64,000 bases of DNA from Candidatus Poribacteria bacterium (GTDB lineage Bacteria > Poribacteria > WGA-4E > WGA-3G), in contig CAXXUA010000013.1 in NCBI GenBank assembly GCA_963663765.2, positions 672,001 to 736,000 of the forward strand. Reading direction: 5' to 3'. Under the pieces are notes generated by a model that had not been told where the DNA came from, ran no database searches, and saw only the letters and a program-made list of their open reading frames with translations. Below, one piece after another: positions 12,951 through 58,343 of the stretch. Position 1 is the first letter of the stretch. Each line of letters begins with the position of its first letter. The position numbers and the translations under genes were made by a program.

Positions 12951-12954
12951 TATA

Positions 12955-12990: not shown

Positions 12991-13000
12991 TAGAAATCAA

Positions 13001-13918
13001 ATGTTAATTGAAGTCAATAATTTATCTGTCTTTTTTGGAACAAATGCTGCATTAGACGATCTCTCTGTAGAATTAGAGGGGGGTGCAATAGGCTTGTTGG
13101 GACCCAACGGAGCAGGAAAAAGCACCTTGATTAAAATGCTACTCGGATTTATTAAACCGAGTCATGGTGCAGCAAAAGTATTCGGATTAGATGTGCAAGT
13201 CAATCAAGTGAATATCCGACAAAAGATGGGATATATGCCGGAAGACGATTGCCTAATTCCGTTAATGAACGCGGTTCAACTTGTGGCTTATGCAGGAGAA
13301 CTCTGTGGCATGCCATCACGCGATGCGATGCAACGTGCCCACGAAGTGCTATACTATGTCGGTATTGATGAAGAACGTTACCGACCCATAAGTGGGTATT
13401 CGGCAGGTATGCGACAACGGGTGAAATTAGCACAAGCATTGGTTCACGATCCTGACCTTCTATTACTTGATGAACCAACAAACGGAATGGATACAACGGG
13501 AAGAGAGGAGATGCTATTACTTGTTAAAGACATTGCTGTAGATAAGGGGATAGACGTGGTTCTATCTTCCCATCTATTGCCAGATGTAGAATCTGCATGC
13601 CGACATGTGATAGCACTTTCTCACGGCAGCCTTGTGATACAAGGTAATATAGATGAACTCAGAAAAAACCACGGACAAGCATTTGACCTAAAAATTGTTG
13701 GTGATCGTGATGCCTATGTCAATGCATTAGAAGACTATCCTTATGATACAGAATTACGTCCTGATGGTCATGTGCGTGTTACTTCAAAAGCAACGGAGCA
13801 AACACAAGGATCGTTCTTCTTCACATTGGCACATGAAACAGGTGTTCAACTCCGTCAAATGAGAGAAGTAAAACACTCTCTTGAGGATGTTTTTGCTGAC
13901 GCAATGGAAATGGATTGA
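13001..13918 (+). CDS. ABC transporter ATP-binding protein (ABC-2 type)
   Basis: GPNGAGKST, YSAGMRQ, LLLDEP, SSH. Confidence 0.92.
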   Translation: MLIEVNNLSVFFGTNAALDDLSVELEGGAIGLLGPNGAGKSTLIKMLLGFIKPSHGAAKVFGLDVQVNQVNIRQKMGYMPEDDCLIPLMNAVQLVAYAGELCGMPSRDAMQRAHEVLYYVGIDEERYRPISGYSAGMRQRVKLAQALVHDPDLLLLDEPTNGMDTTGREEMLLLVKDIAVDKGIDVVLSSHLLPDVESACRHVIALSHGSLVIQGNIDELRKNHGQAFDLKIVGDRDAYVNALEDYPYDTELRPDGHVRVTSKATEQTQGSFFFTLAHETGVQLRQMREVKHSLEDVFADAMEMD

Positions 13919-17351: not shown

Positions 17352-17379
17352 AGCACATCACATGTTTTCAAATGAAGCG

Positions 17380-17979
17380 TTATAACATACCATTTTCAGT
17401 AAAAACATGTTGCATTGGAACATCCCAAGGTTGAGGACATAAATTTTTCACTATTTGTATCTGAAATGCAAGACCTGCGGTTACCGCATTCGGACAGGTG
17501 GGTAGAAAACGGTCATAAAACCCTTTGCCATATCCGAGACGATTGCCAGCTAAATCAAAAGCAACTCCTGGAACGAGGATAAGTTGGATCTGATCATGTG
17601 GAAAAACAGGACAACTTTGATTAGCTTCCATCATACCATAACGGTGTTTAACCAGATCATCTTTCAAATTCTGAATATGTCTTGGAATAAGTTTACCACT
17701 CTCCATATCAACTACGGGAGAAATTACCTGTATTCCTTGTTTGAGAAGGACATCACACAGTTCCCATGTTTCTACTTCACTTCTCATACTCAGATAAACC
17801 ATCATCGCTTCTAAAGACCAACATTCACTTTGCTCAATCCATTCCAAAACATTTTGTACAATGTGTTTGCTGTACAAAGTACGCTCAACATTAGTAAGCT
17901 TATCACGTTTTCGTAGCGTATCTACACGAATGGATTCCCGTATATGTGCGTTACCCATTTTTTCAGTCTTTCCATTCAA
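17380..17979 (-). CDS. ygfA: 5-formyltetrahydrofolate cyclo-ligase
   Basis: LVPGVAFD-G-RLGYGKGFYDR, PWDVPM; true start may be ATG 17958. Confidence 0.9.
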   Translation of the reverse strand: MNGKTEKMGNAHIRESIRVDTLRKRDKLTNVERTLYSKHIVQNVLEWIEQSECWSLEAMMVYLSMRSEVETWELCDVLLKQGIQVISPVVDMESGKLIPRHIQNLKDDLVKHRYGMMEANQSCPVFPHDQIQLILVPGVAFDLAGNRLGYGKGFYDRFLPTCPNAVTAGLAFQIQIVKNLCPQPWDVPMQHVFTENGML

Positions 17980-19309
17980 TATGATCTATGTGTTTTGCAA
18001 GTGCATCGCGAAAAGTGGAAGGTTTCATGGAGAGTAATCGTGCAGCCTGCGTCTTATTCCCGTCTGTTTTTCGCATCGCCCAAGCAATTAACTCACGTTC
18101 AGTAGATTTAATGATTTCATGATATGAGGTAGCACTCGGTGTGCTATCAAGTTTTTCAAAGGTTGGAAGTTTTAAATCTATCGGAATGTCCTCTGCAGTA
18201 ATGTCTGTTCCACTTTTGACAGAGACAAGCCGCTCAACGATATTTTCAAGTTCACTGATGTTACCCGGCCACGGATATTCTGTTAGTATGTTTACAGCAT
18301 CTGGTTTCATTCTGATGGCTTGATGTGGCGAGAAAATATCCAAAAAATGAGATATTAACATCGGGATATCTGTTTTGCGTTCACGCAACGGTGGCAGGAA
18401 TAGTGGAACAACATTCAATTGATAGTAAAGTTCCTCAAGAAAATCACCATGTTTTGTTTTTTCTTTTAGACATTCCCGACTTGTTGAAATGATCCGCACA
18501 TCAATTTCTTTAGGTTCATTTTCAGAAGGATCAATAATCTTGTCATTTTTCAACACGGACAATAACTTTGCTTGCAAGTCTATCGGCATGGTCTCTACAT
18601 TTACCACAAATAAAGTGCCTTGGTTTGCCAATTGTATTTTTCCTTGTTGGGTTTGAATACCAAAAAACTCAGTATCAATTGCATCGGCAGAGAGACCAAT
18701 ACAATTGATACTCACATAAGGTTGATGTTGACGTGCACTTTGGAGATGGATGGTTTTTGCTAACAGAGATTTACCTGTCCCCTCCTCACCAAATATCATA
18801 ATGTTACTATCTGATGAAGCAAGCTTGGGTAGGACTTTGAGTATTTCCTGTATCTGTTGGCTCTTTCCAATCAATGTTTGGTAAAGTGAGGGTTCTTGAG
18901 TAGTAGTAGATGTTTTGACAGAAGAAGTCTTATTGTCAACGGGTGTTTTACCCCTTAAAGTCTTGAGTTTATCTAACATTATGATTAACTCATCACTTGA
19001 AAAAGGCTTTTTTATGTAGTTATACGCTCCAAATCTTAGTGCTTCAACAGCTGTTTCTACACTTGCATAGGCGGTCATGACAATTACAGTGATTTGTGGA
19101 TGATCTTTTTTGACTTTTTTCAGGAAATCAATTCCGTGCATTTGTGGCATCCGTAAATCAGTTACCAAAACATCAAACTTCTCCTGTTGCAGCAGTTGCA
19201 ACCCGATCATAGGTGACTCAACAGCAATTGCATCGTAATTGGCATCGCGCAAGTCATCGCGGAGTGTCATGCGTTTTAGTTTTTCATCATCAACAACCAG
19301 GATTTTCAT
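17963..19309 (-). CDS. NtrC-like response regulator (REC-AAA+-HTH) with degenerate AAA+ motifs
   Basis: VVDDE, TDLRMP, GEEGTGKS, YPWPGNISELEN, GNKTQAARLL; GAFTGA absent. Confidence 0.88.
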   Translation of the reverse strand: MKILVVDDEKLKRMTLRDDLRDANYDAIAVESPMIGLQLLQQEKFDVLVTDLRMPQMHGIDFLKKVKKDHPQITVIVMTAYASVETAVEALRFGAYNYIKKPFSSDELIIMLDKLKTLRGKTPVDNKTSSVKTSTTTQEPSLYQTLIGKSQQIQEILKVLPKLASSDSNIMIFGEEGTGKSLLAKTIHLQSARQHQPYVSINCIGLSADAIDTEFFGIQTQQGKIQLANQGTLFVVNVETMPIDLQAKLLSVLKNDKIIDPSENEPKEIDVRIISTSRECLKEKTKHGDFLEELYYQLNVVPLFLPPLRERKTDIPMLISHFLDIFSPHQAIRMKPDAVNILTEYPWPGNISELENIVERLVSVKSGTDITAEDIPIDLKLPTFEKLDSTPSATSYHEIIKSTERELIAWAMRKTDGNKTQAARLLSMKPSTFRDALAKHIDHIEWKD

Positions 19310-43415: not shown

Positions 43416-43493
43416 TGTAAATCTTTGATGTCTGGCGGAATCAGAATAAGGTGGGAGACGATGTTGTCCCTGGCGAACTAACAATATTTTTAG

Positions 43494-43533
43494 CGTCTTC
43501 TGCCAAAAAATTGAAGTAATCTTCAATTTGCAT
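43494..43533 (-). pseudogene. First 13 codons of a DUF433 gene
   Basis: MQIEDYFNFLAED with GGAGG RBS; 43494-43535 matches 57234-57275 at 38/42 nt. Confidence 0.75.
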
Positions 43534-43550
43534 GGTATACCTCCCTTCCT

Positions 43551-44120: not shown

Positions 44121-44217
44121 TATTTTTAGCAGTTGCTTTTTTCTGACGGTTTCTGATACAATATCAGGTGTGTAGATCTGAAAACTCTGGCGTAACTTGA
44201 TTCTGGGGAGAAAATTC

Positions 44218-44541
44218 ATGGAACAAATGAAGACTGCAGATATTCATGACAAGGTCTTTGAGGAAACCTATACCGCCCACATCCAAAGAAACGGTGCGAA
44301 CTGGCTTGGTCGGATACCAGACGTTCCAAAAGTCAAATGTGAAGCACCTACAGAAGCCATACTTCTGAAAACCCTTGAAAAAAAACTTCATGAGGCACTC
44401 ATCGCCGAAGAAGAAGCGTGGGAGAAGCAATTTGAGGAAGACGTGAAAGCCGGACGGCTGGAACACCTTGCCGAGAAAGCTATTAAAAATTATAGAGAAG
44501 GCAAATACCGAAGCGTAGACGAACTACAGAAGTTATTGTAG
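44218..44541 (+). CDS. Antitoxin: HicB-like N-terminal domain + short antitoxin tail
   Basis: YTAHIQRNGANWLGRIPDVP (HicB-like); AWEKQFEEDVKAGRLEHLA. Confidence 0.65.
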   Translation: MEQMKTADIHDKVFEETYTAHIQRNGANWLGRIPDVPKVKCEAPTEAILLKTLEKKLHEALIAEEEAWEKQFEEDVKAGRLEHLAEKAIKNYREGKYRSVDELQKLL

Positions 44542-44542
44542 T

Positions 44543-44794
44543 ATGGAACATATTCTTGATGACGATTTTTGGGATGCCTACGCAGAACTTCCGCTGAATG
44601 TCCAAAGACGCATCCCTCAGAAATTTCAACTCCTTCGGCAAAATCCCAGACATCCTTCTCTCCGTTTTAAAAAGGTTGGAGCCCTTTGGGCAATCCGGGT
44701 GAGTAGAGGCTACAGGGCCTTGGCCCGTGAAGAAGAAGGGAATTTCATCTGGTTTTGGGTTGGAACACATGCCGAATACGAGAGACGGATTTGA
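44543..44794 (+). CDS. RelE/ParE-like toxin
   Basis: FW..Y..LP..VQ; NPRHPSLRFKKV; WFWVGTHAEYER. Confidence 0.85.
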   Translation: MEHILDDDFWDAYAELPLNVQRRIPQKFQLLRQNPRHPSLRFKKVGALWAIRVSRGYRALAREEEGNFIWFWVGTHAEYERRI

Positions 44795-45020: not shown

Positions 45021-45215
45021 TTCTTATTGAAGTGGGACATAAACGATTTGGTCAATATATTCGCCTTCAAACGATGCACCAGCAATGAGAATCAACTGTT
45101 CAATAATTAATCCTATTGAGACATCAAGATTAATCGTGAAAATACCCGGCACATGGTGCCCTGCTGCAAGATGGTCAGCGAGGTGTTGCGGCATACTTTT
45201 CCGATTGTTAGTTAT

Positions 45216-46637
45216 CAAGAATCACGACAAAACCCCTACCTTTAGGTAGTGGGATGTAGTCGTGCTAAGTGCTTGTGTCAAGAAAAAACTTGATTTTTGG
45301 TTTAAAACATGAGATACTCATTATACCAGTTCAGTGTAGGTGCTACTAACACCTACACACCTTTAGTAGAGGGAACTGACGTCTTCATAGGACTGGAATA
45401 TCATCATGCTAAAAACACATAAGATTGCATTGAATCCAAATAACAATCAACGAAAATGGTTTGCACAACAGTGTGGCTATGCGAGATTTGCATATAATCA
45501 TGCATTAGCAGATTTCAAGTCTGCATTGGCAAATGATGAGTTCTTATCCGCTGCGAAGTTAAACACTCGATTTAATATTGCTAAGAAAGCACATGCTTGG
45601 ACTAAAGATATGGATCAGGTTGTAGCCAATAAAAGCATATTTGGTAACTTGTCTGCTGCGCTTGCGAATTGGGTTGGTAAGCGTGCGAGATTTCCGAAGT
45701 TCAAGAAGCGTGGCAAAAAGGACGCATTCACCACAAATAATCAATCTGTAGAAGTTGAAGGCAAGCGTATCAAACTTCCTAAGATTGGTTGGATTAGCAT
45801 GTTTGAATCATTGCGTTTTGTGGGTAAGATTATGAAAGTGACGATCTCAAGGACAGCACATCGTTGGTTTGTATCTATCACCATAGAAACAGAGGACACC
45901 GAAGCAGTTGATAACTCAACGCACCCTGTGATTGGTATAGATGTAGGCATAAACACACTTGCCACATTGAGTGATGGCACGAAATATGATAATCCAAGAC
46001 CCCTGAAACGATATGAAAAGAAGTTAGCAAGAGAACAACGTAGATTAAGTAGAAAAGTTTTCAAGTCTAACAACTGGTTCAAACAAAAACACAAGTTAGA
46101 ACGTATCTACTATCGTATCGCTTGTATCCGAAACGATGCACATCATAAAGCAACTACAGAGATTGTCAACCTCGCATCTGCGATCGGTATTGAGACACTC
46201 AAGGTTACTAATATGCTGAAGAACAGAAACCTCGCAAAAGCATTGTCAGATACAGCATTAGGCAGTTTCCTGCTAAAACTCAAGACAAAAGCAGAAGTGC
46301 ACGGTATACCTGTCAAAGAAGCAGATCAGTTCTTTGCAAGTAGTAAAACCTGTTCCGGTTGTGGACACAAAAAGAAAGACCTAACACTTTCAGAAAGAAT
46401 GTATCACTGCAGTCAATGTGATATGTCTATAGATAGAGATGTCAACGCTGCAATAAACTTGAAACCAACTACGGTGGGACACACCGAAAGTCACGCCTGT
46501 GGAGTGCAAATAAGACCCAACGCTGTTCAGGAAAGGGCACGAGACACGGAAGCAGGAAAAGTCGTTTGGAAACAACTCAAACTGTTTCCAATATAAGAAC
46601 TAAGAACCCCCATGCTTTAGCTTGGGGAGTATGTCAG
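45216..46637 (+). mobile_element. IS1341-like tnpB-only element, copy 2
   Basis: Inserted after TTAT with no TSD; removal restores DUF5615; same end hairpins as copy 1. Confidence 0.92.
45406..46596 (+). CDS. tnpB: RNA-guided endonuclease TnpB
   Basis: HTH N-terminus; GIDVG, GIETL, CSGC/CSQC, DRDVNAAINL. Confidence 0.94.
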   Translation: MLKTHKIALNPNNNQRKWFAQQCGYARFAYNHALADFKSALANDEFLSAAKLNTRFNIAKKAHAWTKDMDQVVANKSIFGNLSAALANWVGKRARFPKFKKRGKKDAFTTNNQSVEVEGKRIKLPKIGWISMFESLRFVGKIMKVTISRTAHRWFVSITIETEDTEAVDNSTHPVIGIDVGINTLATLSDGTKYDNPRPLKRYEKKLAREQRRLSRKVFKSNNWFKQKHKLERIYYRIACIRNDAHHKATTEIVNLASAIGIETLKVTNMLKNRNLAKALSDTALGSFLLKLKTKAEVHGIPVKEADQFFASSKTCSGCGHKKKDLTLSERMYHCSQCDMSIDRDVNAAINLKPTTVGHTESHACGVQIRPNAVQERARDTEAGKVVWKQLKLFPI

Positions 46638-46807
46638 TAAGCTGAAATCGTGCTGCTCACACCACTTTAAGATTTCGGGGTCTTTAGTGCTTCTTGCAGG
46701 AGCACCTTCGTTACCAATCTTCAAGACCGTTAATGATGGTTCATGGTAAAGTAATTGCGTCTGGTAGATTGGTGGAATATGTTCGTCTAATAGATACCGA
46801 CGCATCT

Positions 46808-48409
46808 TTATTCCTGTTCATTTTTGGATGGGGATGGTTTTGTAATTGCTGAGATACTTTTTGGAATGTCCATCGGTGAGCTATCAGAAACATTCTTTTT
46901 TTCCGCAATAAGTTGACGTAGTCGAACAACACCGGGTGGCGGATTTTTCTCGTATTCCTCCCGAAAGATTTGGCTGTATTGGAGATTATTTGCTAAATAA
47001 CTCCCTATTTTTATTGGATTTTGAAGATAATAAAGAATCGTTGCGTAAACCTCTTCCAATGTCAGCGTCTCATAGCGTGCAATAATCTCCTCCGGTGTTT
47101 GTGACAGATGAAGAGACTCGTACAGGACAGTGTCAATACCGATACGCGTGCCTTTTATCCGAATATCATCCTCTGATAAAAAATCAAAGTTTCTTTCAAA
47201 AGGATAGAGTTGTTCGTATACTTGGATTTGTCTGAGAATACGGTTTTCGACAGGGAAAAATAGTGTGCGCTTATTTTGAATTAGATATTCAAGTTGGCTC
47301 AGGACTTCGTGACTATCCCGTCCGGATGTAAGTCCAGCTAATAAACCTAACGTTACAAATTTTAGCTGGTTGTACGGAATCTGTTCTTCCCATATTTTAA
47401 AGAGAAAATCAGTAGCCATGTTTAATGCCTTTTGCTGACTCATTCTCTGTTCTCCGAAGGCTTGAACTAAGCTATTGTAGGGTTCAGCGAGGTTCCAATT
47501 TGCTTGTTTTAAAGCTTCCATTAACGTGTCTGTCCCAAACTCTGTGTGATAGTAGTGAAAACAAACAAGCTGAATTGCCATTTTACTGTACTCAGTTTTA
47601 TCAAGTACATTTTGATTTAGGCAATGTTCCAAAACAACTTGTGTCCACACACCGTCAATTTGGAAATTTGTTCCAGCGTCACTATTGAAGCTTGTTTCTG
47701 CATAAGTTCTGAGCCGCCCATCGTCCGAAAGGAGTAGGTATCCTGGCTGACTTGCGATAAGAAGGGTATCCAAAAATAACGGTTGAAGCATGTCATCTAA
47801 TTCCTTTTTGCGGAGTTGATTCATTTGTAGTGCAGTAGTGCATGGAATGACCTCACAGTTTTCCCTAATCCATTTGATAAGGTTTTTTAGAAGTTCTACG
47901 TTGCATTTTATATCTTTAGGATTGATCATGTGTCTTACATACTGGTTGCCTTGTTTCTCAATGCTCATCTCTTCTTTTTTTTGGACAATTTGTAGTAGTT
48001 CATCAATAGTTGATTGTGAAATGCAGAGTTTTCCAAATACCTTGACAACGGTATCGGCAGCTTCTAAACAGTGTAAGGTGGTGAGGGATATGAGATCCGC
48101 AACAAGTTTGGGCTTTGGATCGTTAAGTAAAGCAAGTGCTTGAGCCCTTTCTTCTGCACTGCCGATACAACACCTAATTCCCAAGTCAGGTTTGTTTATG
48201 AGGAGACTCCACACGTCTAACACATTGCGCCCCGTCCAACCCATGAAGACACCGATTGGGGGTTGGTGTTCTTTATATTTATTTTCAATCTGGAGCGAGG
48301 TTTCATGTCGTTTATTGGCAGCGTCAAATAACGTTTGAAATTTTGTGCCTTCAGAATCGTCTCCCAGGATTGTATCTTGGATAGACCTATTTTGCTCGCT
48401 TACTCCCAT
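46808..48409 (-). CDS. PIN-domain protein fused to C-terminal DUF433 antitoxin domain
   Basis: LVADLISL...LLSDDGRLR (PIN-like); DIRIKGTRIGI..TPEEI..LTLEEVYATILYY (DUF433). Confidence 0.7.
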   Translation of the reverse strand: MGVSEQNRSIQDTILGDDSEGTKFQTLFDAANKRHETSLQIENKYKEHQPPIGVFMGWTGRNVLDVWSLLINKPDLGIRCCIGSAEERAQALALLNDPKPKLVADLISLTTLHCLEAADTVVKVFGKLCISQSTIDELLQIVQKKEEMSIEKQGNQYVRHMINPKDIKCNVELLKNLIKWIRENCEVIPCTTALQMNQLRKKELDDMLQPLFLDTLLIASQPGYLLLSDDGRLRTYAETSFNSDAGTNFQIDGVWTQVVLEHCLNQNVLDKTEYSKMAIQLVCFHYYHTEFGTDTLMEALKQANWNLAEPYNSLVQAFGEQRMSQQKALNMATDFLFKIWEEQIPYNQLKFVTLGLLAGLTSGRDSHEVLSQLEYLIQNKRTLFFPVENRILRQIQVYEQLYPFERNFDFLSEDDIRIKGTRIGIDTVLYESLHLSQTPEEIIARYETLTLEEVYATILYYLQNPIKIGSYLANNLQYSQIFREEYEKNPPPGVVRLRQLIAEKKNVSDSSPMDIPKSISAITKPSPSKNEQE

Positions 48410-48483
48410 CGATTTCTACCCCTATCAAAAATTTCTTTCACAGTGCTTTTATCAATTTTTCTATTGCTATTTTTATTTTGTCA

Positions 48484-48512
48484 TTATAGCATATTTCTGC
48501 TGCATAGTCAAG
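48484..48512 (-). promoter_or_regulatory. Sigma70 promoter for the PIN-DUF433 gene
   Basis: TTGACT...TGcTATAAT on the minus strand. Confidence 0.6.
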
Positions 48513-48564
48513 ATAAAAAAGGTTTGCGTTAGAATGATTATAGTAAGCGATTTTAACAACTAAC

Positions 48565-48681
48565 TTAACCACCATACCAACTCGGAAAAGCAATCCCCTT
48601 CCGCTTAAGCATCACCAACTCCGTATCAAGATCACATGTAGACTGTTTCCCGCCGTGGATACTCGGCTCAGCTCAGAGCAT
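48565..48681 (-). repeat. Copy C of the R-M gene 3' end
   Basis: ML*AEPSIHGGKQSTCDLDTELVMLKRKGIAFPSWYGG*, colinear with 53778-53894. Confidence 0.95.
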
Positions 48682-48732
48682 AATGGAAATCTCTAATGCC
48701 TGAATCAGGATTTCATGAGGGTTATGAGTGAA

Positions 48733-49596
48733 TTAAATTGCAGGATTCCACGATACCTTTTCGCTATCAGGTATGATCTTTTTTTCCCAATGCAATAGTT
48801 TGGCAATAGGTCCTATATCGTCATCAGGTATATCCTGGAGGTACAGCAATTGGAAAAGAGCAATTCCTATATTTTCAAGGAACATGCTATGAGAGTCAAG
48901 AGCCTCATATTGGGGTAGTCTGCCACTAAAAGTTACTGTAAGTCCGCCCTGAATATATCCGTTTGTAACAAGTTCAAAACAATCGTGTAACAATTTTGAT
49001 AGTTCTAAGGAAAATTCTGGCTCAAAAGAAGTAAGAAATTCTTGACCTTTTTCTCTTCTACCAACCATGCTCAAAATACAAAGTTGTTGATATGTAAGTT
49101 GTTCTGCAGATTTTATAATTTTATGGCTTAAATCTGCACTGATTTCTTGTTCAAAAACAGTGTTTACATAAACGTTTGAAATATACCGGATTTTCTTCTC
49201 TTCTGGTTCTCTTTGACATTTTAATATAACATTTTCAAGAATTTCTTCGTCTTTAGACCTGTCAGAAAAATCTTTATCAAAAAAACCATCTTCACGAGGT
49301 TTCTCACCTTTTTCTAAGCGTTGGCGAATCCCAGCTAGAGCAAAGGCAAAAGCGGCACCTGCTCTGATCTTCTCGCGTGGTCCAATCATTCGTTCCAAGA
49401 TTTCATTGCCGATTTTCCTGAATCCAATCTGAATCAATTTACTACCGACACTAACTCCAATCGTTGTGACCGGATCTCCGCTCAGCAAACCTGCTGCCAA
49501 ACCGCTAATAGCACTACCTGTTATCTCACTAGAGGTTTCAATAAGTTGAAGAACTCTATCATTTTTAGCAGAATTCTTTTCAAAGTTTTGAGTCAT
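48733..49596 (-). CDS. Hypothetical protein, paralog of 49580 (possibly Abi-alpha/DUF4393-like)
   Basis: Shared RLEKGEK-REDGFF..DRSK..EEKKIRYI..LTYQQLCIL motifs. Confidence 0.6.
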   Translation of the reverse strand: MTQNFEKNSAKNDRVLQLIETSSEITGSAISGLAAGLLSGDPVTTIGVSVGSKLIQIGFRKIGNEILERMIGPREKIRAGAAFAFALAGIRQRLEKGEKPREDGFFDKDFSDRSKDEEILENVILKCQREPEEKKIRYISNVYVNTVFEQEISADLSHKIIKSAEQLTYQQLCILSMVGRREKGQEFLTSFEPEFSLELSKLLHDCFELVTNGYIQGGLTVTFSGRLPQYEALDSHSMFLENIGIALFQLLYLQDIPDDDIGPIAKLLHWEKKIIPDSEKVSWNPAI

Positions 49597-50413
49597 TCCA
49601 TAATTCCTCCAGTATTGAGTCTACATCTTCATTAGGAATATGATCCAATTTTGCAAATTTGAACATGTTTTCGCTAAGGATATTAGAAAACCCTACCGAG
49701 TTGGCAAATCCGGGATATACAGGTGATTTATCACTATTAGTCCACAGACTTTCGGCAAAAGAACCTAAATACAATTCATGAATTTTTTCCATAAGTGGAT
49801 TGCTGGGATTAATAAGTCCTCTATCTCGAACCTCAATACAATCTGTGAGGATGGATGATAAGTTTTGCGTAATATTTGGATTGCCTAAACTATCTAAATC
49901 AATTTGGTCTGCATTCATAAGTAATTTTAGAATACACAGTTGACGATAACTTAGTTCATCAAGATTTTTTAAAATACGACGATACGTATCTATATCAAAA
50001 TCTGAATCAAAATGAACGTTTTCTGTTAAATTTGCTATATATTTTATTTTCGGTTCTTCTGTTGTATCCATCACTTTTTTTAAAGTAGATTCTACAACTT
50101 CGTCTATTTTGGACCGATCGGTAGGGGTTTTTTCAAAGAATCCATCATCCCGAAATTTTTCACCATTTTCTAATCTTTGAGATATATTTTCTGCTGCTTG
50201 TATTCCCCATTGAAATAATCTTACAGTTTGTCTTTTACTTATAAGTGGAGTGATAAATCTGTCTAAACCCCATCCACCAAACACACTAATAGCTCCAGTT
50301 GATATCCCAGTTGGGTCTCCAATAGAAGTGCCAACTGCTATCCCTGATCCTAATGCAATTAATTGAAAATAGGGAAATCCTTTCGCTTCTTTTTCGTCTT
50401 TAATTAGGTTCAT
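49580..50413 (-). CDS. Hypothetical protein, paralog of 48733
   Basis: RLENGEK-RDDGFF..DRSK..EEPKIKYI..LSYRQLCIL; AGGAGG RBS; 17-nt overlap with the next gene. Confidence 0.6.
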   Translation of the reverse strand: MNLIKDEKEAKGFPYFQLIALGSGIAVGTSIGDPTGISTGAISVFGGWGLDRFITPLISKRQTVRLFQWGIQAAENISQRLENGEKFRDDGFFEKTPTDRSKIDEVVESTLKKVMDTTEEPKIKYIANLTENVHFDSDFDIDTYRRILKNLDELSYRQLCILKLLMNADQIDLDSLGNPNITQNLSSILTDCIEVRDRGLINPSNPLMEKIHELYLGSFAESLWTNSDKSPVYPGFANSVGFSNILSENMFKFAKLDHIPNEDVDSILEELWNDSKL

Positions 50414-50483
50414 TTCAATCCTCCTTTTTCATTGATTTACCTCTACAAAAAACCAATATCCAAATATCGAATCTCGTTTAATA

Positions 50484-50594
50484 TTATTCCTTATCATACC
50501 AATTCGGAAAAGCAACCCCCTTCTTCTTAAACATCACCAATTCCCCATCAAGATCACATGTAGACTGCTTCCCACCGTGGATACTCGGTTCAGC
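50484..50594 (-). repeat. Copy B of the R-M gene 3' end
   Basis: AEPSIHGGKQSTCDLDGELVMFKKKGVAFPNWYDKE*; first 49 nt identical to the gene. Confidence 0.95.
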
Positions 50595-50633
50595 CCTTTC
50601 GTGTTTCAGAATAATACGATCTGTTAGTATTGT

Positions 50634-52211
50634 CTACTTTCGGTCAAATATACATTTACGAAGTTCCTCGTAGACCTTAGTTTCCTTCGTGATACATTTT
50701 GAGAGACTCTTTTTAAACATATCTGTACTGATGTTTGTTTTAATACCACAAAACTTTTTTATCCGTTCAATTTTATCTTTCACGTTCTGATTACAGATAT
50801 CCGTTACAAAGTTATCATAGTCTTCCTCACTGAACATTAAACCTTCAGACTGACAGTATTTTACCAATATTTCTTTGTCAAAGAGATAATTTTCTAATTC
50901 CCAACGTCTGAGAATACGATGGTGAAATGGAGTATTAGCTAAGTGATTCTGGCGTTCGGATTCATTAATTGATTTCCCTGATCCTATATCACGATCTTTG
51001 AGAACCCATATCTCTATTCCTTTGAGCACTTTCCCAAGAATATCTATTGCAATGTCACTGCGTTGGTCCGGTTCAGTATTTCCTCCGCTTGATACAAACA
51101 CCGTATCAGAAAAATCAGCAGAAAAGATATTTTCATAGATTTGTGCGTCGAACCCTTTTTCGATTCTGTTTGGTCCTGGTTTTGCCCTACCCTCACAGTA
51201 GATAATACGATTTGGAGCAACTAAATCTGTCAAGTCGTCAAGTGCTGTCTTAAAAATTCTCATGTAGTTTTTACGAATTGGTTCTATCGGTCGTATTGTT
51301 TGAGTTCCTGTAAAGTAGTCCTTCTCTGAGAAGTCTAAAATTTGAGAATCTTCTTTTAATTCGTTCTGTAGTGCCCGAATAAATCCTATACTGTGGGTCG
51401 CAACCCACAGTTGGCAATGATCAGATATTAATTTGTTAATCTCAACGAGGAGTTTGCGCTGAATAGTAGTGCTTAAATGCAACTCTGGTTCATCAATACA
51501 ACATAGCGTATTTGTAAACTCATCTGATTTGATTACAAGATCAATAATCATGTCAACAACTTCTTTTTCTCCTGCTGATAGGTTGGCAAAAGGAAAATCA
51601 ATGGTGTTACCCTTTTTAAAATATATCTGTCCCTTTTCGTTCAAAGGTTCTCCTAAACTCGATATTTGGACATCAAGAATATTCATCAAGATACTGTTTA
51701 CCTTCTCAATAAAATCACCGTGGATTTGGTCACCTGTTTTTTTTCCTCTATTGTATTCTGAGTATAAAACAGAATGTAATCTTTCGTAATTATTCAAAAG
51801 ACGTTGATCTACTGCAATTGAACTAATAGGATTATTTTTATTGCTACGTGTCTCCTTGATAGATTTGATTCCTGTCCCCTCAATTTTTGGAGTATAACGG
51901 TATGACGTTCTGAAGTAAAACCCCTGTGCATGCTGATTTTCTTCAGCGAAATTTACTTCTACACTTTGCCTTTTGTATTGCTCATTTTCAGGATCTGCAT
52001 CATAAAATTGGGATTTTGAATAGAAATCTGCAGCCTCAGCTCCTCGCGAACTTCCAATCTGTATTTTTTGTTTAAAGCCATCATATACCGAGCTCTTTCC
52101 ACAGCCATTGGGACCGACCATAGCAACTATTTTTTTCGGATTTGGACCAAGTTCAATAGTTAGATCATCAAATCGTTTGAAGCCAGTTAATCTTACTGTT
52201 TGTACTCTCAT
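50634..52211 (-). CDS. OLD-like ABC ATPase-TOPRIM nuclease
   Basis: GPNGCGKS, LSAGEKE, IDEPELHL, ATHS; TOPRIM YCEG and DRD; ELENYL. Confidence 0.8.
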   Translation of the reverse strand: MRVQTVRLTGFKRFDDLTIELGPNPKKIVAMVGPNGCGKSSVYDGFKQKIQIGSSRGAEAADFYSKSQFYDADPENEQYKRQSVEVNFAEENQHAQGFYFRTSYRYTPKIEGTGIKSIKETRSNKNNPISSIAVDQRLLNNYERLHSVLYSEYNRGKKTGDQIHGDFIEKVNSILMNILDVQISSLGEPLNEKGQIYFKKGNTIDFPFANLSAGEKEVVDMIIDLVIKSDEFTNTLCCIDEPELHLSTTIQRKLLVEINKLISDHCQLWVATHSIGFIRALQNELKEDSQILDFSEKDYFTGTQTIRPIEPIRKNYMRIFKTALDDLTDLVAPNRIIYCEGRAKPGPNRIEKGFDAQIYENIFSADFSDTVFVSSGGNTEPDQRSDIAIDILGKVLKGIEIWVLKDRDIGSGKSINESERQNHLANTPFHHRILRRWELENYLFDKEILVKYCQSEGLMFSEEDYDNFVTDICNQNVKDKIERIKKFCGIKTNISTDMFKKSLSKCITKETKVYEELRKCIFDRK

Positions 52212-52373
52212 TATTTATCTCCTTGCGAAATTAATTGAATTTCTCTGTTATTAACATTAACCTAATTCTTATACAATCAAAGAAGGCGGAACACCAATTT
52301 TTGTAAACTGGATTAGATACACTACAACAATTACTTTCCATTATTAAAGTATTGACTAAACTATACATTTATA

Positions 52374-52402
52374 ATTATATCATTAGACTAATAAAATGTC
52401 AA
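52374..52402 (-). promoter_or_regulatory. Consensus sigma70 promoter for the OLD-like gene
   Basis: TTGACA-17 nt-TATAAT with extended TG. Confidence 0.75.
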
Positions 52403-52519
52403 GGGAAAATTCAGAAATTCCGAAAATATTTTATATTTTTTTAACCTTTACTTAGAAATTGTTTTGTAGTATACTATATCGGTGTATGTTATGAACCCGA
52501 TAATAAAAGGAGAAAAGCT

Positions 52520-52921
52520 GTGGAACTAGGTGAACGTCTTCGTTCCATTCGTAAAGAAAAGAACTTAACTTTAAAAGATCTGAGCGAACTTGCAGAATTG
52601 TCGGTTCCATATCTTTCAGATATGGAACGCGGAGAAGTAAATCCATCCATAGAATCTTTAAAAAAGGTTGCGAATGCTTTCAAAATGACAGTCAGAGATC
52701 TTTTTACTGGTGTAGAGAAATTAGGAGAATCAAGACCAGAGCCTTATCCTAAAGGATTTAAAGAGTTTTTAGATGATCCTGAGTTTTCTGAAGAAATTGA
52801 TGATGAATGGAAAGGATTTCTAATTGAGATGAATTTTCGAGGTGAACAACCTACCACAAAAAGAGAATGGATCGAGTTGCATCTCAATCTTCGACGCACA
52901 TTTTCACAGGAGAACAAATGA
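52520..52921 (+). CDS. ddrO: XRE repressor, DdrO-like
   Basis: ERLR..LKD..SVPYLSDMERG..NPS..TVRDL..GVE..DP..W..FRG..P..K..W.E..L.L.R pattern recalls Deinococcus DdrO over its full length. Confidence 0.75.
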   Translation: MELGERLRSIRKEKNLTLKDLSELAELSVPYLSDMERGEVNPSIESLKKVANAFKMTVRDLFTGVEKLGESRPEPYPKGFKEFLDDPEFSEEIDDEWKGFLIEMNFRGEQPTTKREWIELHLNLRRTFSQENK

Positions 52922-53766
52922 ATAGTCTTAATGAACATGTAATCAAAATGGTTCAAAATACTGTTAGCGAATATAGTTCAACGGAGAACGCGAATTTTGA
53001 GGAAATATGTTCCGGTTTAGGCATAGATGTGAAGGAAGCATCTCTATCACTAGAAATTGATGGAATGCATAAAGGAAGTACCATATTTATCAACACACGG
53101 GTCCAAAATGAAGAACGAAAAAGGTTTACCCAATTCCATGAGATCACACATTACTTGCTTGAGAAGGATGGATATTTAATTTCTGAACTTCACGATCTCA
53201 CCTTCAGTCAAGAGGGGGAGTACGATAAGCAATTAGAAAAATTATGTAATTTTGGGGCTGCTGAATTTTTGATGCCAAGTAAAGAATTTATAAACCTTTA
53301 TGTAGAAACGGGTTTTAATGTTGAGTTGATTCTTAGTGCTGCCGAATATTTTAAATCTTCAACAATTGCTGCGACAATCCAACTTGCTCAAGTTGCGCCA
53401 AATCAATGTATTACGGCTATTTGCGAATTTATGCAGGATAAAAGAACACCTTTGCAATCACAGATTTTAAATCAAAATGAAAAATCCCCCAAGCGACAAT
53501 TGCGTGTATCCTATGCTGCTTCGTCACCAAATGTAAGATATATGTTGGCAAAAAATACTGTCATTCCTTATGACCATCTGATTTATGATGCTATTGGACA
53601 AGACAATCCTGTTGAAGGGGATAGTAATGTTCCTTTTCGAAGTGGTAAAAAGATGCCATGTCGTTGTGAAGCATTAGCAGAGAGGAATCGGGTGTATGTA
53701 ATATTTCATTTGAGTCCTCCGACATCTACAAATGAAATGCAAATCAATTTATTTGACTCGTCGTAA
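52918..53766 (+). CDS. irrE: IrrE/ImmA-family metalloprotease (IrrE/PprI-like)
   Basis: RFTQFHEITH (HExxH), EKLCNFGAAEFLMP, GAF-like C-terminus; ATGA overlap with the XRE gene. Confidence 0.8.
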   Translation: MNSLNEHVIKMVQNTVSEYSSTENANFEEICSGLGIDVKEASLSLEIDGMHKGSTIFINTRVQNEERKRFTQFHEITHYLLEKDGYLISELHDLTFSQEGEYDKQLEKLCNFGAAEFLMPSKEFINLYVETGFNVELILSAAEYFKSSTIAATIQLAQVAPNQCITAICEFMQDKRTPLQSQILNQNEKSPKRQLRVSYAASSPNVRYMLAKNTVIPYDHLIYDAIGQDNPVEGDSNVPFRSGKKMPCRCEALAERNRVYVIFHLSPPTSTNEMQINLFDSS

Positions 53767-53777
53767 CCTACAAGTCT

Positions 53778-56768
53778 TTACTTATCATACCAACTCGGAA
53801 TAGCAATCCCCTTTCGCTTAAGCCCCGCCAACTCCGCATCAAGATCACATGTAGACTGCTTCCCACCGTGGATACTCGGTTCAGCGCAGAGCATCTCACG
53901 CAGAGTCTGCATTGACTCAAGCACGTTATCACTTGTGATGCCCAACACCTCAGTCAGCAGACAACAATCTAATTCCTCGCGCACAGGGTCATGCGCGCAC
54001 TCGTTGACAGGCAGCATCCGTTTGGACTTCAAACGTTCAAAAATTGACTCTGCGTTTGCTAAAGCCGCATCGGTGAGTTCGCGAACATCCAACGTGGGCA
54101 AATTTCTCAATGTTGTAAGCCTTATTTTACCACGTCCAGAAACCTGTTTCCCACTATGCAACCAATGACAAAACAGTCCCAATGTTGAGTTACACCAGAG
54201 TGTCCACGGAATCTCATATCTCGGATTTGCAAAAGCTACATTCGTTATCAAGGCTGGACCGATAGCAGGTTTTTCAGTGAAAAGGACTACCACTGAATTA
54301 GAAGTAAATCTTAGCATCATGTTGTAATGCGTCCTGCTGTTTCGATTTACTCGATTTTGCACTTTAGTTTCTGCATTCGGAACGGGAATTGCGTGTGAAT
54401 CCGGGAGTACAAGCATTGATCTTTGAACTTCGCTCTTTGCATTCCACAAGCAAGCGTACCCATATTCGTTGGGTTGAAATCCTTCAACTTTACGAAACAC
54501 ACCTCTAACCTCAGCCAATCCCAAAGTCGCAATATCTCCAACTTGGCAAATTGGAATCTCAATAGCCTTTTCTTGTAGTTCCTGTAGCGGTAGTTCTAAT
54601 TTGCCTTCTTTTAGTCGTCTTGCAGATTGAAGTAATGCCATTGATTTCACACGCACAGCAACCCACCCTTCACCACGAGGTAGTGGACAATCAAGCATAT
54701 ATCCGAGAGTTTCCTCTCCGACCTTTATTGCATCGCCGCCACTTGGTGTATCTTCTAATCGGTACATTCCGTTAATTCGGATGATTCTGTTTGTAATCTC
54801 AAACGCCTCAAGTAAACTTTTTGGACGTTGATTTAGACAGACAAACTTTCCACGTCCCGTATTATCACCTTTTCCTTTTGTTGCTACGATGATGCACTCT
54901 GCCATATCCGTATCAGCAGAGAAAGCACAGTCAAACCCTTTAGCCTCAGCAATAGTTATCACAACCACATCATGATATGCAGTTGACCACATATCACGTA
55001 GTTTCTGAGTAGTTGGTGAAGCAAGCACTGTTGCTGGAAGGATAAACCCCATTGTACCTTTGGACTTAAGCATTCTATGTGCCAATTCTATAAAGTAGGC
55101 ACTTAGGCCCGCTTGTCCATCTGCGACAAGTGTGTCCTTTTTCTTGAGAACAGTTTGCATTATTTTTGTATATTCTTGAGGTCGGTCACTGCCTTGGAAC
55201 GGGGATTTAGCACCATCTATGCCTGCGGGGTCTGCCCCCGGTTTCGTAAAAGGTGGATTCTGAATAACGACATCAAACTTTTTGTAAGGAAATTCCTTTT
55301 GAAGATCAACAACCCTATTTTCTTCACCACCAACTTGTTCACTTTCCGTTTCAAATAGCTTCATATCATCAAGCAATTCAAGTGAACCTACTGCGTAATC
55401 ACCATTGTCTAATTTACCGTAAGGAGCAGTAAGGATACGCGTACCACCAAGTTTCATATCAGCATATCTACTTGCAAGTGCAGCAGCAGTAAGGTGTGTA
55501 GCATTCGGCATAATATCTACACCGCCAATGTTTTCCTCTAACATTTTCTGATGGATATCCCTACCATTTCTACCCGCTTGTTCATACAGAGACAAAACGC
55601 GTTGATAGACACCGTTAAGCAGCGCACCTGTGCCGCAAGCGAAATCTGCAACTTTCGGAAGTTTCCCTTTCGGCAGTTCGGGCATCACAAGCGTAGACAG
55701 CAGCACCGCACTTTCCGGGAGCGTATAGTTCGCCTTTACGTATTTCCTATCGGTAATTAACTTTTGAAACACGATACCCGCGAGTTCATGAATCTGCGCG
55801 ATACCGGTATCAACAAGGTCTTTGGCAGCCTCACACAGAAGCCTTAAGGTATGTTTGACAAGTCTGTCATCGGTAGCGAGTGCCTCAACGAGATTCCGAG
55901 CATCTTCAAAAATGGGACGGTAGTTAACCTTGAGGATTGTGTTCCAGTCATCAATAACATCGGCATAATCAATTGTCGGTAGGAGTTGGCGGAGTGAGCG
56001 GACAGATTCCATCTCTGCTTTACCAGCAAGGGAACTTTGGAAGACAAAAGCATCAGTGATAATTAGTGCTGCCATACGGAGCGTTTGGATGTTCGGTTTT
56101 TCTTCCGAGTTATCTTCCTCTTTAGAGAAAACCTCTTGGTGCAGAATTGTCTCAACCTTCTTGGCAATAACAGGATGGTCTACGATAGCATCTTCAAGTA
56201 GGTATGCTGCCTTGTTGACGCTTTTCTCCATCTCTTCAGCTGCCGCTTCAAGGTGAGAGTTCGGCATTGCACCGACGCGGAGCGCGTTTGCGATGTCGCC
56301 TACGGTGCCTTTTGCCCATCCGTTTTCTGGAAAATGTCCTACGGTATCACCGACTGTATTGACAAGTTTGTATTGTAGGTCATCTGCAGTGCGTAGTTGT
56401 GGATTGATATCCTTTCCCGGTATCATCTTAAAACGGTCAGGATAAAGGATTGCCATGACGTTGTTGAGCGTTTTTCCAACGACGTGGTATTCTGTTTCAA
56501 GCTCAAGTACAAGTCTCGTTTCCGCTTGTTCTATAAGATTTTTTGCGTTAGTGGTAGTAGCAAACTTTGCTTCAATACCGACAGGTTCTCTACCGTGTTC
56601 AATTACGATTGCATCAAGTTCGTTATTGCCTTTGAGGAAAGCATTGACTTCGGTTTCGAGTTCCCATCCGTGACGCATGTGACGTAAGATATTCACTAGT
56701 TCATTTGTGATTGTTGTTTCGCGTCTTTTTGGCATAGCGTTTATAATTTCATTTGCGGTTTTTTTCAT
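53778..56768 (-). CDS. Type IIG-like fused restriction endonuclease/N6-adenine methyltransferase
   Basis: N-terminal D..IEAK nuclease motif; motif I DFACGTG; motif IV NPPF; C-terminal TRD region. Confidence 0.85.
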   Translation of the reverse strand: MKKTANEIINAMPKRRETTITNELVNILRHMRHGWELETEVNAFLKGNNELDAIVIEHGREPVGIEAKFATTTNAKNLIEQAETRLVLELETEYHVVGKTLNNVMAILYPDRFKMIPGKDINPQLRTADDLQYKLVNTVGDTVGHFPENGWAKGTVGDIANALRVGAMPNSHLEAAAEEMEKSVNKAAYLLEDAIVDHPVIAKKVETILHQEVFSKEEDNSEEKPNIQTLRMAALIITDAFVFQSSLAGKAEMESVRSLRQLLPTIDYADVIDDWNTILKVNYRPIFEDARNLVEALATDDRLVKHTLRLLCEAAKDLVDTGIAQIHELAGIVFQKLITDRKYVKANYTLPESAVLLSTLVMPELPKGKLPKVADFACGTGALLNGVYQRVLSLYEQAGRNGRDIHQKMLEENIGGVDIMPNATHLTAAALASRYADMKLGGTRILTAPYGKLDNGDYAVGSLELLDDMKLFETESEQVGGEENRVVDLQKEFPYKKFDVVIQNPPFTKPGADPAGIDGAKSPFQGSDRPQEYTKIMQTVLKKKDTLVADGQAGLSAYFIELAHRMLKSKGTMGFILPATVLASPTTQKLRDMWSTAYHDVVVITIAEAKGFDCAFSADTDMAECIIVATKGKGDNTGRGKFVCLNQRPKSLLEAFEITNRIIRINGMYRLEDTPSGGDAIKVGEETLGYMLDCPLPRGEGWVAVRVKSMALLQSARRLKEGKLELPLQELQEKAIEIPICQVGDIATLGLAEVRGVFRKVEGFQPNEYGYACLWNAKSEVQRSMLVLPDSHAIPVPNAETKVQNRVNRNSRTHYNMMLRFTSNSVVVLFTEKPAIGPALITNVAFANPRYEIPWTLWCNSTLGLFCHWLHSGKQVSGRGKIRLTTLRNLPTLDVRELTDAALANAESIFERLKSKRMLPVNECAHDPVREELDCCLLTEVLGITSDNVLESMQTLREMLCAEPSIHGGKQSTCDLDAELAGLKRKGIAIPSWYDK

Positions 56769-56922: not shown

Positions 56923-57273
56923 TCAACGACATGTTGTCTGGACTAAGAAATTCAGGTTTTGTCTTTTGTCCTTTATGAGTTGACGTAGTCAAAGAACAGC
57001 GGGTGACGGATTTTTCGCCTGTTCTTCTCGTGCCTTTCGGCAGTATCCCAAATAATCCTCCAAATATGCACCAACTTTTTCTTTATTTTGCAGATAATAT
57101 AGGATTGTGGCATAAACCTGTTCTAGGGAAACCGTATAGTTGCGATCATCAATCTATTCTGGAGTTTTTCCATTGTAAATATAATCGTTCAGGACAGTTT
57201 CAATACCTATACGTGTTCCCTTGATACGAATATCGTCTTCTGCTAAAAAGTTGAAGTATACTTCAATTTGCAT
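56923..57273 (-). pseudogene. DUF433 antitoxin pseudogene
   Basis: MQIEVYFNFLAEDDIRIKGTRIGIETVL..TPE*..LEQVYATILYYLQN with two in-frame stops; GGAG RBS. Confidence 0.8.
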
Positions 57274-57721
57274 GGGGCAACTCCGTAGTTTTAATAAAGT
57301 CAATAATATTTGTTATTATAATTATATCTTTAACCCGTTAGAATATCAAAGTATTTATCTCCTCAGGATGTGTAACGTTTCTTGCCAGTGTGTTGCCTGA
57401 ATTGCGTGGTATGTCAGAACCACTAAATCAGCGGATTGAATGTCTTATGGCATTTCGCGTAAGACATTTACTGGGTTTTCAACACCGATTATATGAACAT
57501 TCCCTCTTAAATCGGGGTTAAAAACCCCTCCCACAAGAGAAACACCAACACTTTTTTCTAAAAATTAACACCTATGGTGTGTTGTGATTCTTGTCCCAAC
57601 CGTGGAATATTTTAGTTGTTTTTTCGTGTTTTTTTGCATTTTTTTCATAATCGTTATAGATCCTGCCGTGGTATAGATTAATGTCAGTTTTCATTTTTTG
57701 AGAAATATTGAAAAAAACAAC

Positions 57722-57913
57722 TATGATGAAATTTGAAAATAAGTTTACATTCTACAATTGACCATATTGGTTGTCATGTAAGAATCGTATTCTTTTCTTT
57801 GGTAGGAGCGACCTCCCGGTCGCGACTGTTTTGATACATGGTCCCTATACGGTCGCGACCAGGAGGTCGCTCCTACCAACGCGAATGTGTAATTAATTCC
57901 ATGATCTACCATA
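57722..57913. mobile_element. MITE enclosing an inverted GTAGGAGCGACC REP pair
   Basis: GGTAGGAGCGACCTCCCGGTCGCGA ... TCGCGACCAGGAGGTCGCTCCTACC; imperfect TATG..ACATTC ends. Confidence 0.6.
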
Positions 57914-58343
57914 AATATATTATTGGTATATATCATAAGTGGTTTTGGATGTGATTTGTAGTTTTTTGGTGATTGTTTAATGGGATCTCCAACAGATATC
58001 CAATAGGTTTGTGAGAATAGGTTATCGCCTTTTAGCTGTCGTTTATCAATCAGATGACTGATTGCGATAATATCAGAATCGCAGAAGATGCTGAAGGTGT
58101 GTTTGGGTATCTAAATTTCTTTCATAGTTTAAGAATTCTTGCGATGCAATTGAATGTAGTTCATTAAGATGCTCTTCAGCGACTCAGACAAAACACAGAA
58201 AAGATCTTCCAGACAACACACATCTTCCAGACAACACACCTTAACACCCAAATATTTTCGAAAAATATTATACGTAGAAAACTATTGACAAAATATGCAA
58301 ATTTTGATATGTTGATATAACATTTAATAAAGGAGGAATTACC

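Follow-up and report, generated by a model that had tools for sequence, protein, structure and literature searches.

The stretch of DNA examined here, termed the window, comprises 64,000 nucleotides (nt) of a Candidatus Poribacteria genome (assembly GCA_963663765.2, contig CAXXUA010000013.1, positions 672,001 to 736,000). Within it lies a type IIG-like restriction-modification (R-M) gene of 996 amino acids (aa), trailed by small cassettes of defence and toxin-antitoxin (TA) genes. The end of the R-M gene, designated tail A, occurs twice more downstream as orphan tails B and C, which stand between successive cassettes (Table 1). Compared with related loci, the two orphans are recognizable as former functional ends of the R-M gene. 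An earlier reading made from the letters alone, without database searches (the sequence-only reading), had described three copies of this gene end in one orientation. Their presence is confirmed: all three, of 36–39 codons, lie on the minus strand, the strand of the R-M gene, and no further copy exists in the genome.

A repeat search of the window returned a single 109-nt family, whose members match the reference copy at 83% and 91% identity, and a profile of the tail found no fourth copy in the window. When the whole genome (6,349,617 bases) was searched, the three tails alone matched (E values of 1e-55, 1e-37 and 4e-33), the next best match having an E value of 1.2. Because a sequence of roughly 110 nt is thus found only three times in 6.35 Mb, the tails represent neither chance similarity nor a dispersed repeat. 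Alignment also upheld the description of the orphans: tail B starts 9 nt after the start of tail C, the three copies are free of internal indels, each is closed by its own stop codon, and all contain the invariant core ATCAAGATCACATGTAGACTG. Tail C opens with methionine, leucine and a stop, having TGA where the R-M gene has TGC, and tail B has one additional codon (GAA) before its stop compared with tail A.

The codon differences had been described as mostly synonymous, which is not the case. Tails A and B differ by 1 synonymous and 9 non-synonymous changes, and tails A and C by 4 and 6, respectively, plus the TGC to TGA nonsense change. Nevertheless, of the 14 amino-acid states that set B or C apart from A, 13 are also present among the 34 functional tails of other genomes that were compared, and the orphan differences look like allelic variants rather than random decay. 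Tails A and B have a 49-nt identical run in common, but the overall identity of tail B is 0.88 to tail A and 0.90–0.91 to functional tails of other genomes, while tail C most closely resembles the functional tail of locus L061 (95% identical). Since B is no closer to A than to tails elsewhere and C is closest to L061, the copies derive from different alleles. The TAG stop codon of the ATPase gene upstream of tail B is in frame with that tail via a 13-codon linker (50595–50636), and likewise in locus L045. Read-through from the ATPase into tail B was considered and set aside, as a frame match has a 1-in-3 chance of arising at random and nothing else supports it; the match is probably a coincidence.

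The R-M protein has the motifs of an Eco57I-family N6-adenine methylase, namely motif I DFACGTG (aa 375–381) and motif IV NPPF (aa 504–507). These gamma-class motifs lie within one polypeptide of about 1000 aa, as is characteristic of type IIG enzymes, and the matches to type IIG and PglX families are weak. No family matched aa 1–320. A candidate N-terminal D..ExK nuclease motif (D52..E66-A-K68) is a pattern match alone, and cleavage by the protein is therefore putative.

Table 1. Features of the window, by position in the 64,000-nt stretch
Feature	Position	Strand	Remarks
Type IIG-like R-M gene, 996 aa	53778..56768	-	Pfam Eco57I E 4.4e-13; PADLOC REase_MTase_IIG E 2.7e-9
Tail A, functional last 38 codons and stop of R-M gene	53778-53894	-	
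capP/IrrE-like M78 metallopeptidase, cassette 1	52867..53766	+	PF06114 E 1.4e-13; PADLOC capP E 4.5e-23
capH-like XRE-family helix-turn-helix (HTH) regulator, cassette 1	52520..52921	+	Pfam HTH_3 E 1.8e-14; PADLOC capH E 3.1e-12
ABC/OLD-family ATPase (AAA_21), cassette 1 effector	50634..52211	-	PARIS AriAB-like or PtuA-like
Orphan tail B	50484-50594	-	starts at codon 961 (GCT GAA CCG), 38 nt past ATPase stop
ORF277, cassette 2	49580..50413	-	no family match
ORF287, cassette 2, paralog of ORF277	48733..49596	-	31% identity, E 4e-33; no family match
Orphan tail C	48565-48681	-	starts at codon 958 (ATG CTC TGA)
PIN-TPR-GreABC / DUF433 gene, cassette 3	46808..48409	-	N-terminally shorter than the 1442-aa forms (L045, L050)
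TnpB-only IS605-family insertion, 1.4 kb	45215..46637	+	TnpB at 45406-46596; splits DUF5615 toxin gene of cassette 3
ParE-like toxin and upstream partner	44197..44794	+	toxin at 44543-44794; partner open reading frame at 44197-44541

Orphan tails and the gene ends of related loci

The origin of the orphans is evident from other Candidatus Poribacteria metagenome-assembled genomes, the loci and genomes of which are numbered here with L and G. Two loci, L057 and L096, are syntenic with the window, their flanks being about 90% identical to it. In L057, the R-M gene ends in the only tail of the locus, which is functional, and behind it come the flank and cassette that stand behind orphan C in the window (PIN-TPR through BamA); compared with the window, this locus has a miniature inverted-repeat transposable element (MITE) and lacks the insertion sequence (IS). 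Tail C with its flank also corresponds to the functional gene end and flank of L061 and L073, where the C-like tail is followed by a full-length TPR-PIN gene and BamA. In L096, the single functional tail precedes an ORF277 homolog within the same flank as lies behind orphan B, and a functional tail with tail-B-type flank and ORF277 homolog is likewise found in L062, L063 and L065. An ORF287 homolog stands directly behind the R-M gene in L085, as does capHP in L055, L070 and L074. In the window, three arrangements known singly from other loci are thus stacked, and both orphans, along with the cargo behind them, are former functional ends of the gene, as the sequence-only reading had supposed. 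The same reading had taken the cassettes to be a chronological array. This stands in part: the distal unit has the arrangement of the closest relative, presumed to be ancestral, which fits an order with the oldest unit last, but a strict time order cannot be demonstrated, given that whole arrays can be transferred as blocks and that the R-M gene is mosaic.

Orphan tails are not peculiar to the window. The genus was searched with a 50-aa tail query (40 genomes), followed by tblastn of the whole protein against the fetched loci. Twelve orphans starting at residues 955–961 were found in 9 of the 40 genomes (two each in G000, G100 and G094; one each in G086, G083, G110, G107, G080 and G095). They separate varied TA or defence cargo and are always in the orientation of the R-M gene, and the same architecture is present in genomes of 8 other species. 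Among 46 loci fetched around close homologs, 7 contained extra tails, all on the gene strand, and a metagenome collection yielded 5 loci with one tail each and no new arrays. In the sister genus, orphans were found in 0 of 65 genomes at E<=1e-8. Genomes of a third genus (G065–G067) have 12–16 tail matches each, most within open frames of about 1000 aa, and no orphans. The phenomenon is thus restricted to the one genus in which tails are similar enough for pairing. In G065–G067, the type IIG-like family has undergone an unusually large expansion.

Unlike functional tails, orphans decay. Frameshifting indels are present in 4 of the 12 orphans and a nonsense codon in one, compared with 0 of 35 functional tails. 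Orphans are footprints rather than maintained genes.

Junctions and the proposed displacement of gene ends

Junction classes were derived from an alignment of 25 tails with their flanks. Class X starts at codon 956, next to a conserved flank of about 95 nt that borders the promoter side of a ParE-like pair encoded on the opposite strand (6 loci), and class Y starts at codon 958, behind the DUF5615 toxin gene of the PIN-TPR cassette (4 loci). The junctions of the window lie at codon 958 (tail C) and codon 961 (tail B); L045 has the latter as well, together with the C-terminus of the ATPase (82% identity). Partial orphans start at model positions 38, 40, 48 and 57, and longer stubs at residues 871, 919, 928, 937 and 944; two stubs of a distant paralog start at residues 890 and 908. 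Twelve classes were counted in the close family, comprising the four at codons 956–961, three partial orphans (positions 40–57) and the five stubs (aa 871–944). All 12 fall in the last 375 nt of the 2988-nt gene, within its conserved 3ʹ block of about 420 nt, and so does the partial orphan at position 38 (L107), which was found later and is outside the count. Such scatter among other strains speaks against the att-like hotspot that the sequence-only reading had envisaged.

For each of classes X and Y, the orphans have four different sequences behind them, and these equal the sequences behind functional genes elsewhere. As the tail is the only sequence shared among these loci, exchange has taken place within or at the tails after the junctions were formed. 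The R-M gene itself is, judged by its pairwise identities, a mosaic. Its first 1.2 kb are 86–94% identical to L096, except for a bin of 72% at the 5ʹ end, and 82–93% identical to L057, where two bins fall to 72% (5ʹ end) and 68% (nt 573). The segment from nt 1270 to 2560, which contains the target recognition domain (TRD), is allele-specific, being 41–76% identical to L096 and 57–87% to L057 even though the flanks are about 90% identical, whereas L061, L062 and L078 match it at 77–96%. Beyond it, the last 420 nt or so are conserved, with 75–87% identity in the last two bins of the comparison. Because the middle of the gene diverges from its syntenic relatives yet matches other genomes, 3ʹ parts of the gene have evidently been imported or exchanged between lineages.

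The best fit to these observations, held here with about even confidence, is displacement of the C-terminal gene end at the type IIG-like R-M gene. DNA from a related strain would pair with the resident gene through the N-terminal and methylase half, or through the last 420 nt or so after the TRD, and would supply a new gene end along with the donor's downstream defence or TA cassette. The resident end, from about codon 956–961, and its own cassette would be pushed downstream rather than replaced, the end persisting as an orphan tail. The first formation of a junction would require a non-homologous join, as in homology-facilitated illegitimate recombination. Once present, however, an orphan could serve as a portable homology arm of about 110 nt, such that an ordinary double crossover between a donor (R-M gene, tail, cargo 1, orphan) and a recipient (R-M gene, tail, cargo X) would add cargo 1 before cargo X. 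Retention over replacement would be favoured where the cargo is addictive, as with TA genes, or protective. That all 12 junction classes lie in the conserved last 375 nt of the gene supports displacement; the enzymology (RecA-type recombination plus rare illegitimate joins) and the direction and order of events are inferred.

Several points weigh against this explanation. Tails that are 83–91% identical are poor substrates for recombination, although A and B have their 49-nt identical run, and illegitimate joins are rare where they have been measured, according to the account in PMC5361080. A pre-junction donor was not found. Moreover, four independent junction classes (codons 956, 958, 958 and 961) lie within 16 nt, a clustering that a purely homology-driven process does not predict. 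The scan statistic for this cluster gives P 0.0004 relative to the whole gene and P 0.09 within the conserved block, rising to about 0.5 within the block if class Y and the window C junction are one event. There is also a second, loose cluster of breakpoints at model positions 38–48, inside the invariant core, which includes a B-type orphan of L045 that is interrupted at positions 39|48 by a 2.9-kb insertion with a Schlafen-AlbA_2 gene. Finally, comparison of the two halves of the tail yielded no signal of linkage to upstream or downstream neighbours: identities for the 5ʹ and 3ʹ halves are 0.84 and 0.81 among tails with the same upstream junction, 0.88 and 0.81 among those with the same downstream flank, and 0.86 and 0.82 among those with neither.

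A rival explanation, which both clusters favour, is that the tail is a true attachment site, at which integrase-less cassettes bearing a replacement tail are moved by a recombinase encoded elsewhere, resembling CIMEs (cis-mobilizable elements), IMEX elements or pdif modules. Such a site is unlikely overall, yet would account for the 16-nt interval in which classes X, Y, C and B begin, and for the clean insertion into the invariant core in L045. The cassettes are small (0.9–3.3 kb), self-contained and always co-oriented with the gene, and recombinases are available in trans, 6 tyrosine and 5 serine enzymes being encoded in the genome. None of the tyrosine recombinases is on the contig of the window, and the serine recombinases, five near-identical proteins of 202 aa, are no nearer than 182 kb. 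Within or beside the cassettes, no recombinase was detected: the Pfam families Phage_integrase, Resolvase and Recombinase matched 0 of 297 open reading frames (ORFs) around 40 loci including the window (22 from the window, 143, 51 of 97 and 81 of 123 listed; those left out were mostly shorter than 100 aa or came from L061, L073 and L093). No intI was seen beside the array, PF00589 being without a match on the contig or among the window ORFs scanned. Mobility genes seen in the scanned ORFs are DDE transposases, TnpB and a Transposase_31 gene after each tail of L049.

Nor was a structure expected of a recombination site seen in the tail. When both strands of the three tails were folded as single-stranded DNA, they did no better than shuffled sequences (z -0.21 to +1.72; +0.39 to +1.72 on the gene strand), which leaves no sign of a hairpin, and no Rfam family was found at the tails (4 weak, unrelated matches). 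Inverted binding arms were not seen by eye, ACATGT being the only palindrome in the tail core. Codon entropies over the last 110 codons of 35 genes are mildly lower in the tail than upstream, as judged by eye without computed averages, and reveal no core frozen at silent sites and no sign of a protein-binding core. An attachment site would additionally need many enzymes or sublocations to account for 12 distinct breakpoint positions; no free tail-bearing element was found elsewhere in the genome, and orphans lose sequence by indels (4 of 12). Together, the lack of a recombinase in the 297 ORFs, the lack of a hairpin, the number of breakpoint positions and the modest clustering within the conserved block do not favour the att-like integration site of the sequence-only reading.

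A related possibility, rated a little lower still, is a 'gene-tail integron', a dedicated cassette system that would recombine at the coding tail of about 110 nt, served by a recombinase or nuclease in trans that would cut near codons 956–961 or in the core CAGTCTACATGT. If so, small defence and TA cassettes would be moved from one R-M locus to another at several sites in poribacterial chromosomes.

Improbable as well is the decay of tandem arrays, in which whole units of R-M gene plus cargo stood in tandem and the downstream gene bodies were deleted, leaving 3ʹ stubs. Locus L049 (G101) does contain a stub and, after it, two full-length R-M genes that differ from each other, with identical tail and flank after all three, and the stubs of L048, L050, L053 and L047, which have no R-M gene upstream, show that the body can be lost while the 3ʹ end is kept. 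However, every deletion would need an endpoint in the last 375 nt (12 of 12 classes), and intermediates retaining a long remnant were not encountered. Three open frames (394, 475 and 790 aa) in L105, L106 and L108 were considered as long stubs and proved to be full-length genes disrupted by an IS or frameshifted. In L049, the Transposase_31 genes (Rpn/YhgA-like PD-(D/E)XK; 7835–8968, 12604–13725 and 17358–18467) are on the opposite strand, about 55 nt past each tail.

Insertion with long target duplication, in which a cassette entered the tail and duplicated a target of about 110 nt, is more improbable again. It would explain why empty sites have one copy and filled sites two, with no mobility gene (one tail in L057 and L096, three in the window), and repeats of 46–423 bp are recorded for this mode of insertion in PMC2853133. 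The repeats reported in that paper are near-identical (e.g., 417 of 423 positions), whereas those described here are 83–91% identical, with B no closer to A than to the tails of other genomes and C closest to L061; furthermore, the cargo is not an R-M unit. That tails on either side of a young cassette are not nearest relatives counts against this mode.

Misassembly, which would reduce the array to an artefact, has little in its favour. Logan contigs from three runs of two studies cover the region without differences, and a single unitig (48209–50575) spans the whole of tail C. Unitigs break inside tails A and B, at long identical runs shared by the copies, as is expected of real repeats, and depth is even across the cassettes (59.5–66.8 in run X3 and 148–159 in run X4). 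With the same architecture in 8 other species and E values of 1e-33 or lower, an assembly artefact or chance similarity has a negligible probability. The Logan contigs listed contain no joint of two tails, circle junction or cassette-less form, which is uninformative either way since contigs drop rare variants. In run X1, the bins covering 50014–53520 (cassette 1) are almost uncovered and their neighbours low, a gap that no contig bridges.

Cargo and flanking features

The cargo is much as the sequence-only reading had described it, an irrE/ddrO-like pair with an OLD-family gene and a pair of paralogous ORFs, as determined with Pfam, PADLOC and pairwise matching. In cassette 1, capP is convergent with the R-M gene, their stop codons being 11 nt apart. 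The ATPase gene is divergent from capH; its product has AriAB (2.3e-21) and PtuA (3.9e-19) as top PADLOC matches, and no Toprim domain was detected in it by Pfam. Cassette 3 is interrupted by the IS605-family insertion, beyond which a 3ʹ remnant of the DUF5615 toxin gene persists at 45024–45218. L057 and L069 are contiguous across this site, and one contig of run X1 skips from 45215 to 46638, an apparent empty site. A promoter-like pair (TTGACT-17 nt-TATAAT, 48483–48511) lies about 55 nt past the stop of orphan C and before the PIN-TPR gene, and appears by eye to be conserved in L057 and L061. The ParE cassette has no orphan tail in front of it and is 91% identical to the cassette behind the R-M gene in L039 and L040; beyond the ParE-like pair are BamA and then phosphoenolpyruvate carboxykinase.

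Cargo differs between genomes. In 24 further loci, the R-M gene has a varied set of downstream neighbours, many of them of the defence or TA type. Among these neighbours are fused capHP with patatin, CD-NTases, a Piwi protein, PIN-TPR-GreABC, DUF433/DUF5615, ParE, Gp49/HTH_37 and DUF6602, while in some loci the next genes are core genes. The capH/capP pair occurs directly behind the R-M gene with differing partners, an OLD-family ATPase in the window and patatin in L055, and in L045 (G094:C7) its partner is a Schlafen-AlbA_2 protein beside a truncated ATPase; in L055 and L070, the HTH and peptidase are fused in one ORF. A Piwi-domain protein resembling prokaryotic Argonaute (pAgo) is encoded in L077 (13393–15552) and DncV-like CD-NTases in L063, L080 and L087, all of them no more than 4.2 kb past the R-M gene; the Piwi gene of L077 is the only one to start within about 0.4 kb of the R-M gene end.

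Small repeats accompany the island. Next to tails in three genomes there are short inverted-repeat elements. An insert of this kind in L057 (13050–13290) has the termini GGGTGTGTAAAG and a second copy elsewhere in that locus, and a short inverted-repeat element of the CAGGACTTACGCA type is found beside tails in L107 (1000–1200) and in the flank after the L049 tails. A 54-nt direct repeat with 83% identity (43491–43544 and 57231–57284) brackets the whole island; both copies are the starts of small DUF433-like genes, the upstream one of which (about 56960–57290) looks split into two short ORFs. Upstream of the R-M gene, contig depth at 57028–58000 exceeds that of neighbouring bins ten- to hundred-fold in all four runs, and a pair of 31-nt hairpin arms (57799–57829 and 57849–57879) is 94% complementary. 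The interval looks like high-copy MITE-like repeats. About 2.3 kb at this place are present in the window and missing from L057 and L096.

Proposed gene-end displacement among known systems

The assembly of defence islands without a visible transposase or integrase is an open question, and at this locus the end of an R-M gene acts as the seam at which modules are stacked. Modules downstream of this R-M family include capHP-regulated effectors, PIN-TPR-GreABC, ParE and DUF433/DUF5615 TA pairs, and elsewhere CD-NTases, pAgo and Rpn nucleases. The hosts are uncultivated sponge symbionts with many paralogs of the enzyme (up to 16 tail matches per genome). Orphan tails may also serve as a practical marker to locate cassette borders and so to draw attention to candidate defence genes that lack annotation, the ORF277/ORF287 family for example.

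Islands that integrate at the 3ʹ ends of genes (tRNA, tmRNA or protein genes) share part of this design. As described for Islander (PMC4383910) and for ssrA of Dehalococcoides (PMC3146451), the gene is made whole again by the DNA that enters, its former 3ʹ fragment is left at the far border, and each further fragment bounds another unit, sometimes in tandem, as here. Those islands, in the same accounts, have their own tyrosine integrase and a fixed crossover, whereas here no integrase was found and breakpoints occupy 12 positions. The window does have a regenerated target with displaced fragments at the far borders, in that an intact 996-aa gene ending in tail A is followed by orphans. As regards a fixed crossover, four junction classes lie within 16 nt and the eight others are spread over 375 nt (scan P 0.09 within the conserved block).

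In integrons, small cassettes, with or without a promoter, are divided by attC sites of about 100 nt, and the newest cassette lies beside the anchor. Xer sites of the pdif kind consist of XerC and XerD arms around a 6-nt spacer. The pdif modules of Acinetobacter, as presented in PMC6449649, are likewise small cassettes, with a 28-nt site and a recombinase in trans. The array described here has no intI beside it, its tail has no hairpin fold, and its repeat is coding sequence of the anchor gene. The long target duplications of R-M systems reported by Furuta, Abe & Kobayashi (2010, PMC2853133) are similar in their long direct repeats, their R-M context, the lack of mobility genes and the single repeat copy at the empty site. 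In the cases given there, the insert is the R-M unit itself, while in the window the repeats are diverged allelic ends and other defence genes are inserted.

The closest likeness is to the rhs, contact-dependent inhibition (CDI) and Vibrio type VI secretion system (T6SS) immunity arrays, for which a C-terminal displacement model has been put forward (Kirchberger et al. 2017, PMC5361080, citing Jackson 2009, Poole 2011 and Koskiniemi 2014). As set out in that paper, the model starts from a homologous anchor, proceeds through an illegitimate join, a rare event, and continues with the transfer of arrays by ordinary homologous recombination. By the same account, a conserved gene is followed by a co-oriented string of orphaned 3ʹ ends, each with its former trailing genes; the orphans match functional ends of other strains, no integrase is involved, and retention of old cargo is selected. 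In the window, too, co-oriented orphans lie downstream that, together with their trailing genes, equal a functional end elsewhere. The systems differ in what is displaced. In the toxin loci, as there described, the displaced end is the variable toxin domain (cdiA-CT) and the cargo is its immunity gene (cdiI). Here, what is displaced is a conserved tail of about 37 codons that is not known to have a function of its own, and the variable TRD is located upstream of it. Unrelated, stand-alone defence and TA modules make up the cargo, and the host gene encodes an R-M enzyme. On the best-fitting interpretation, the logic of gene-end displacement, so far described for polymorphic toxin loci, would extend to R-M genes and to general antiviral cargo.

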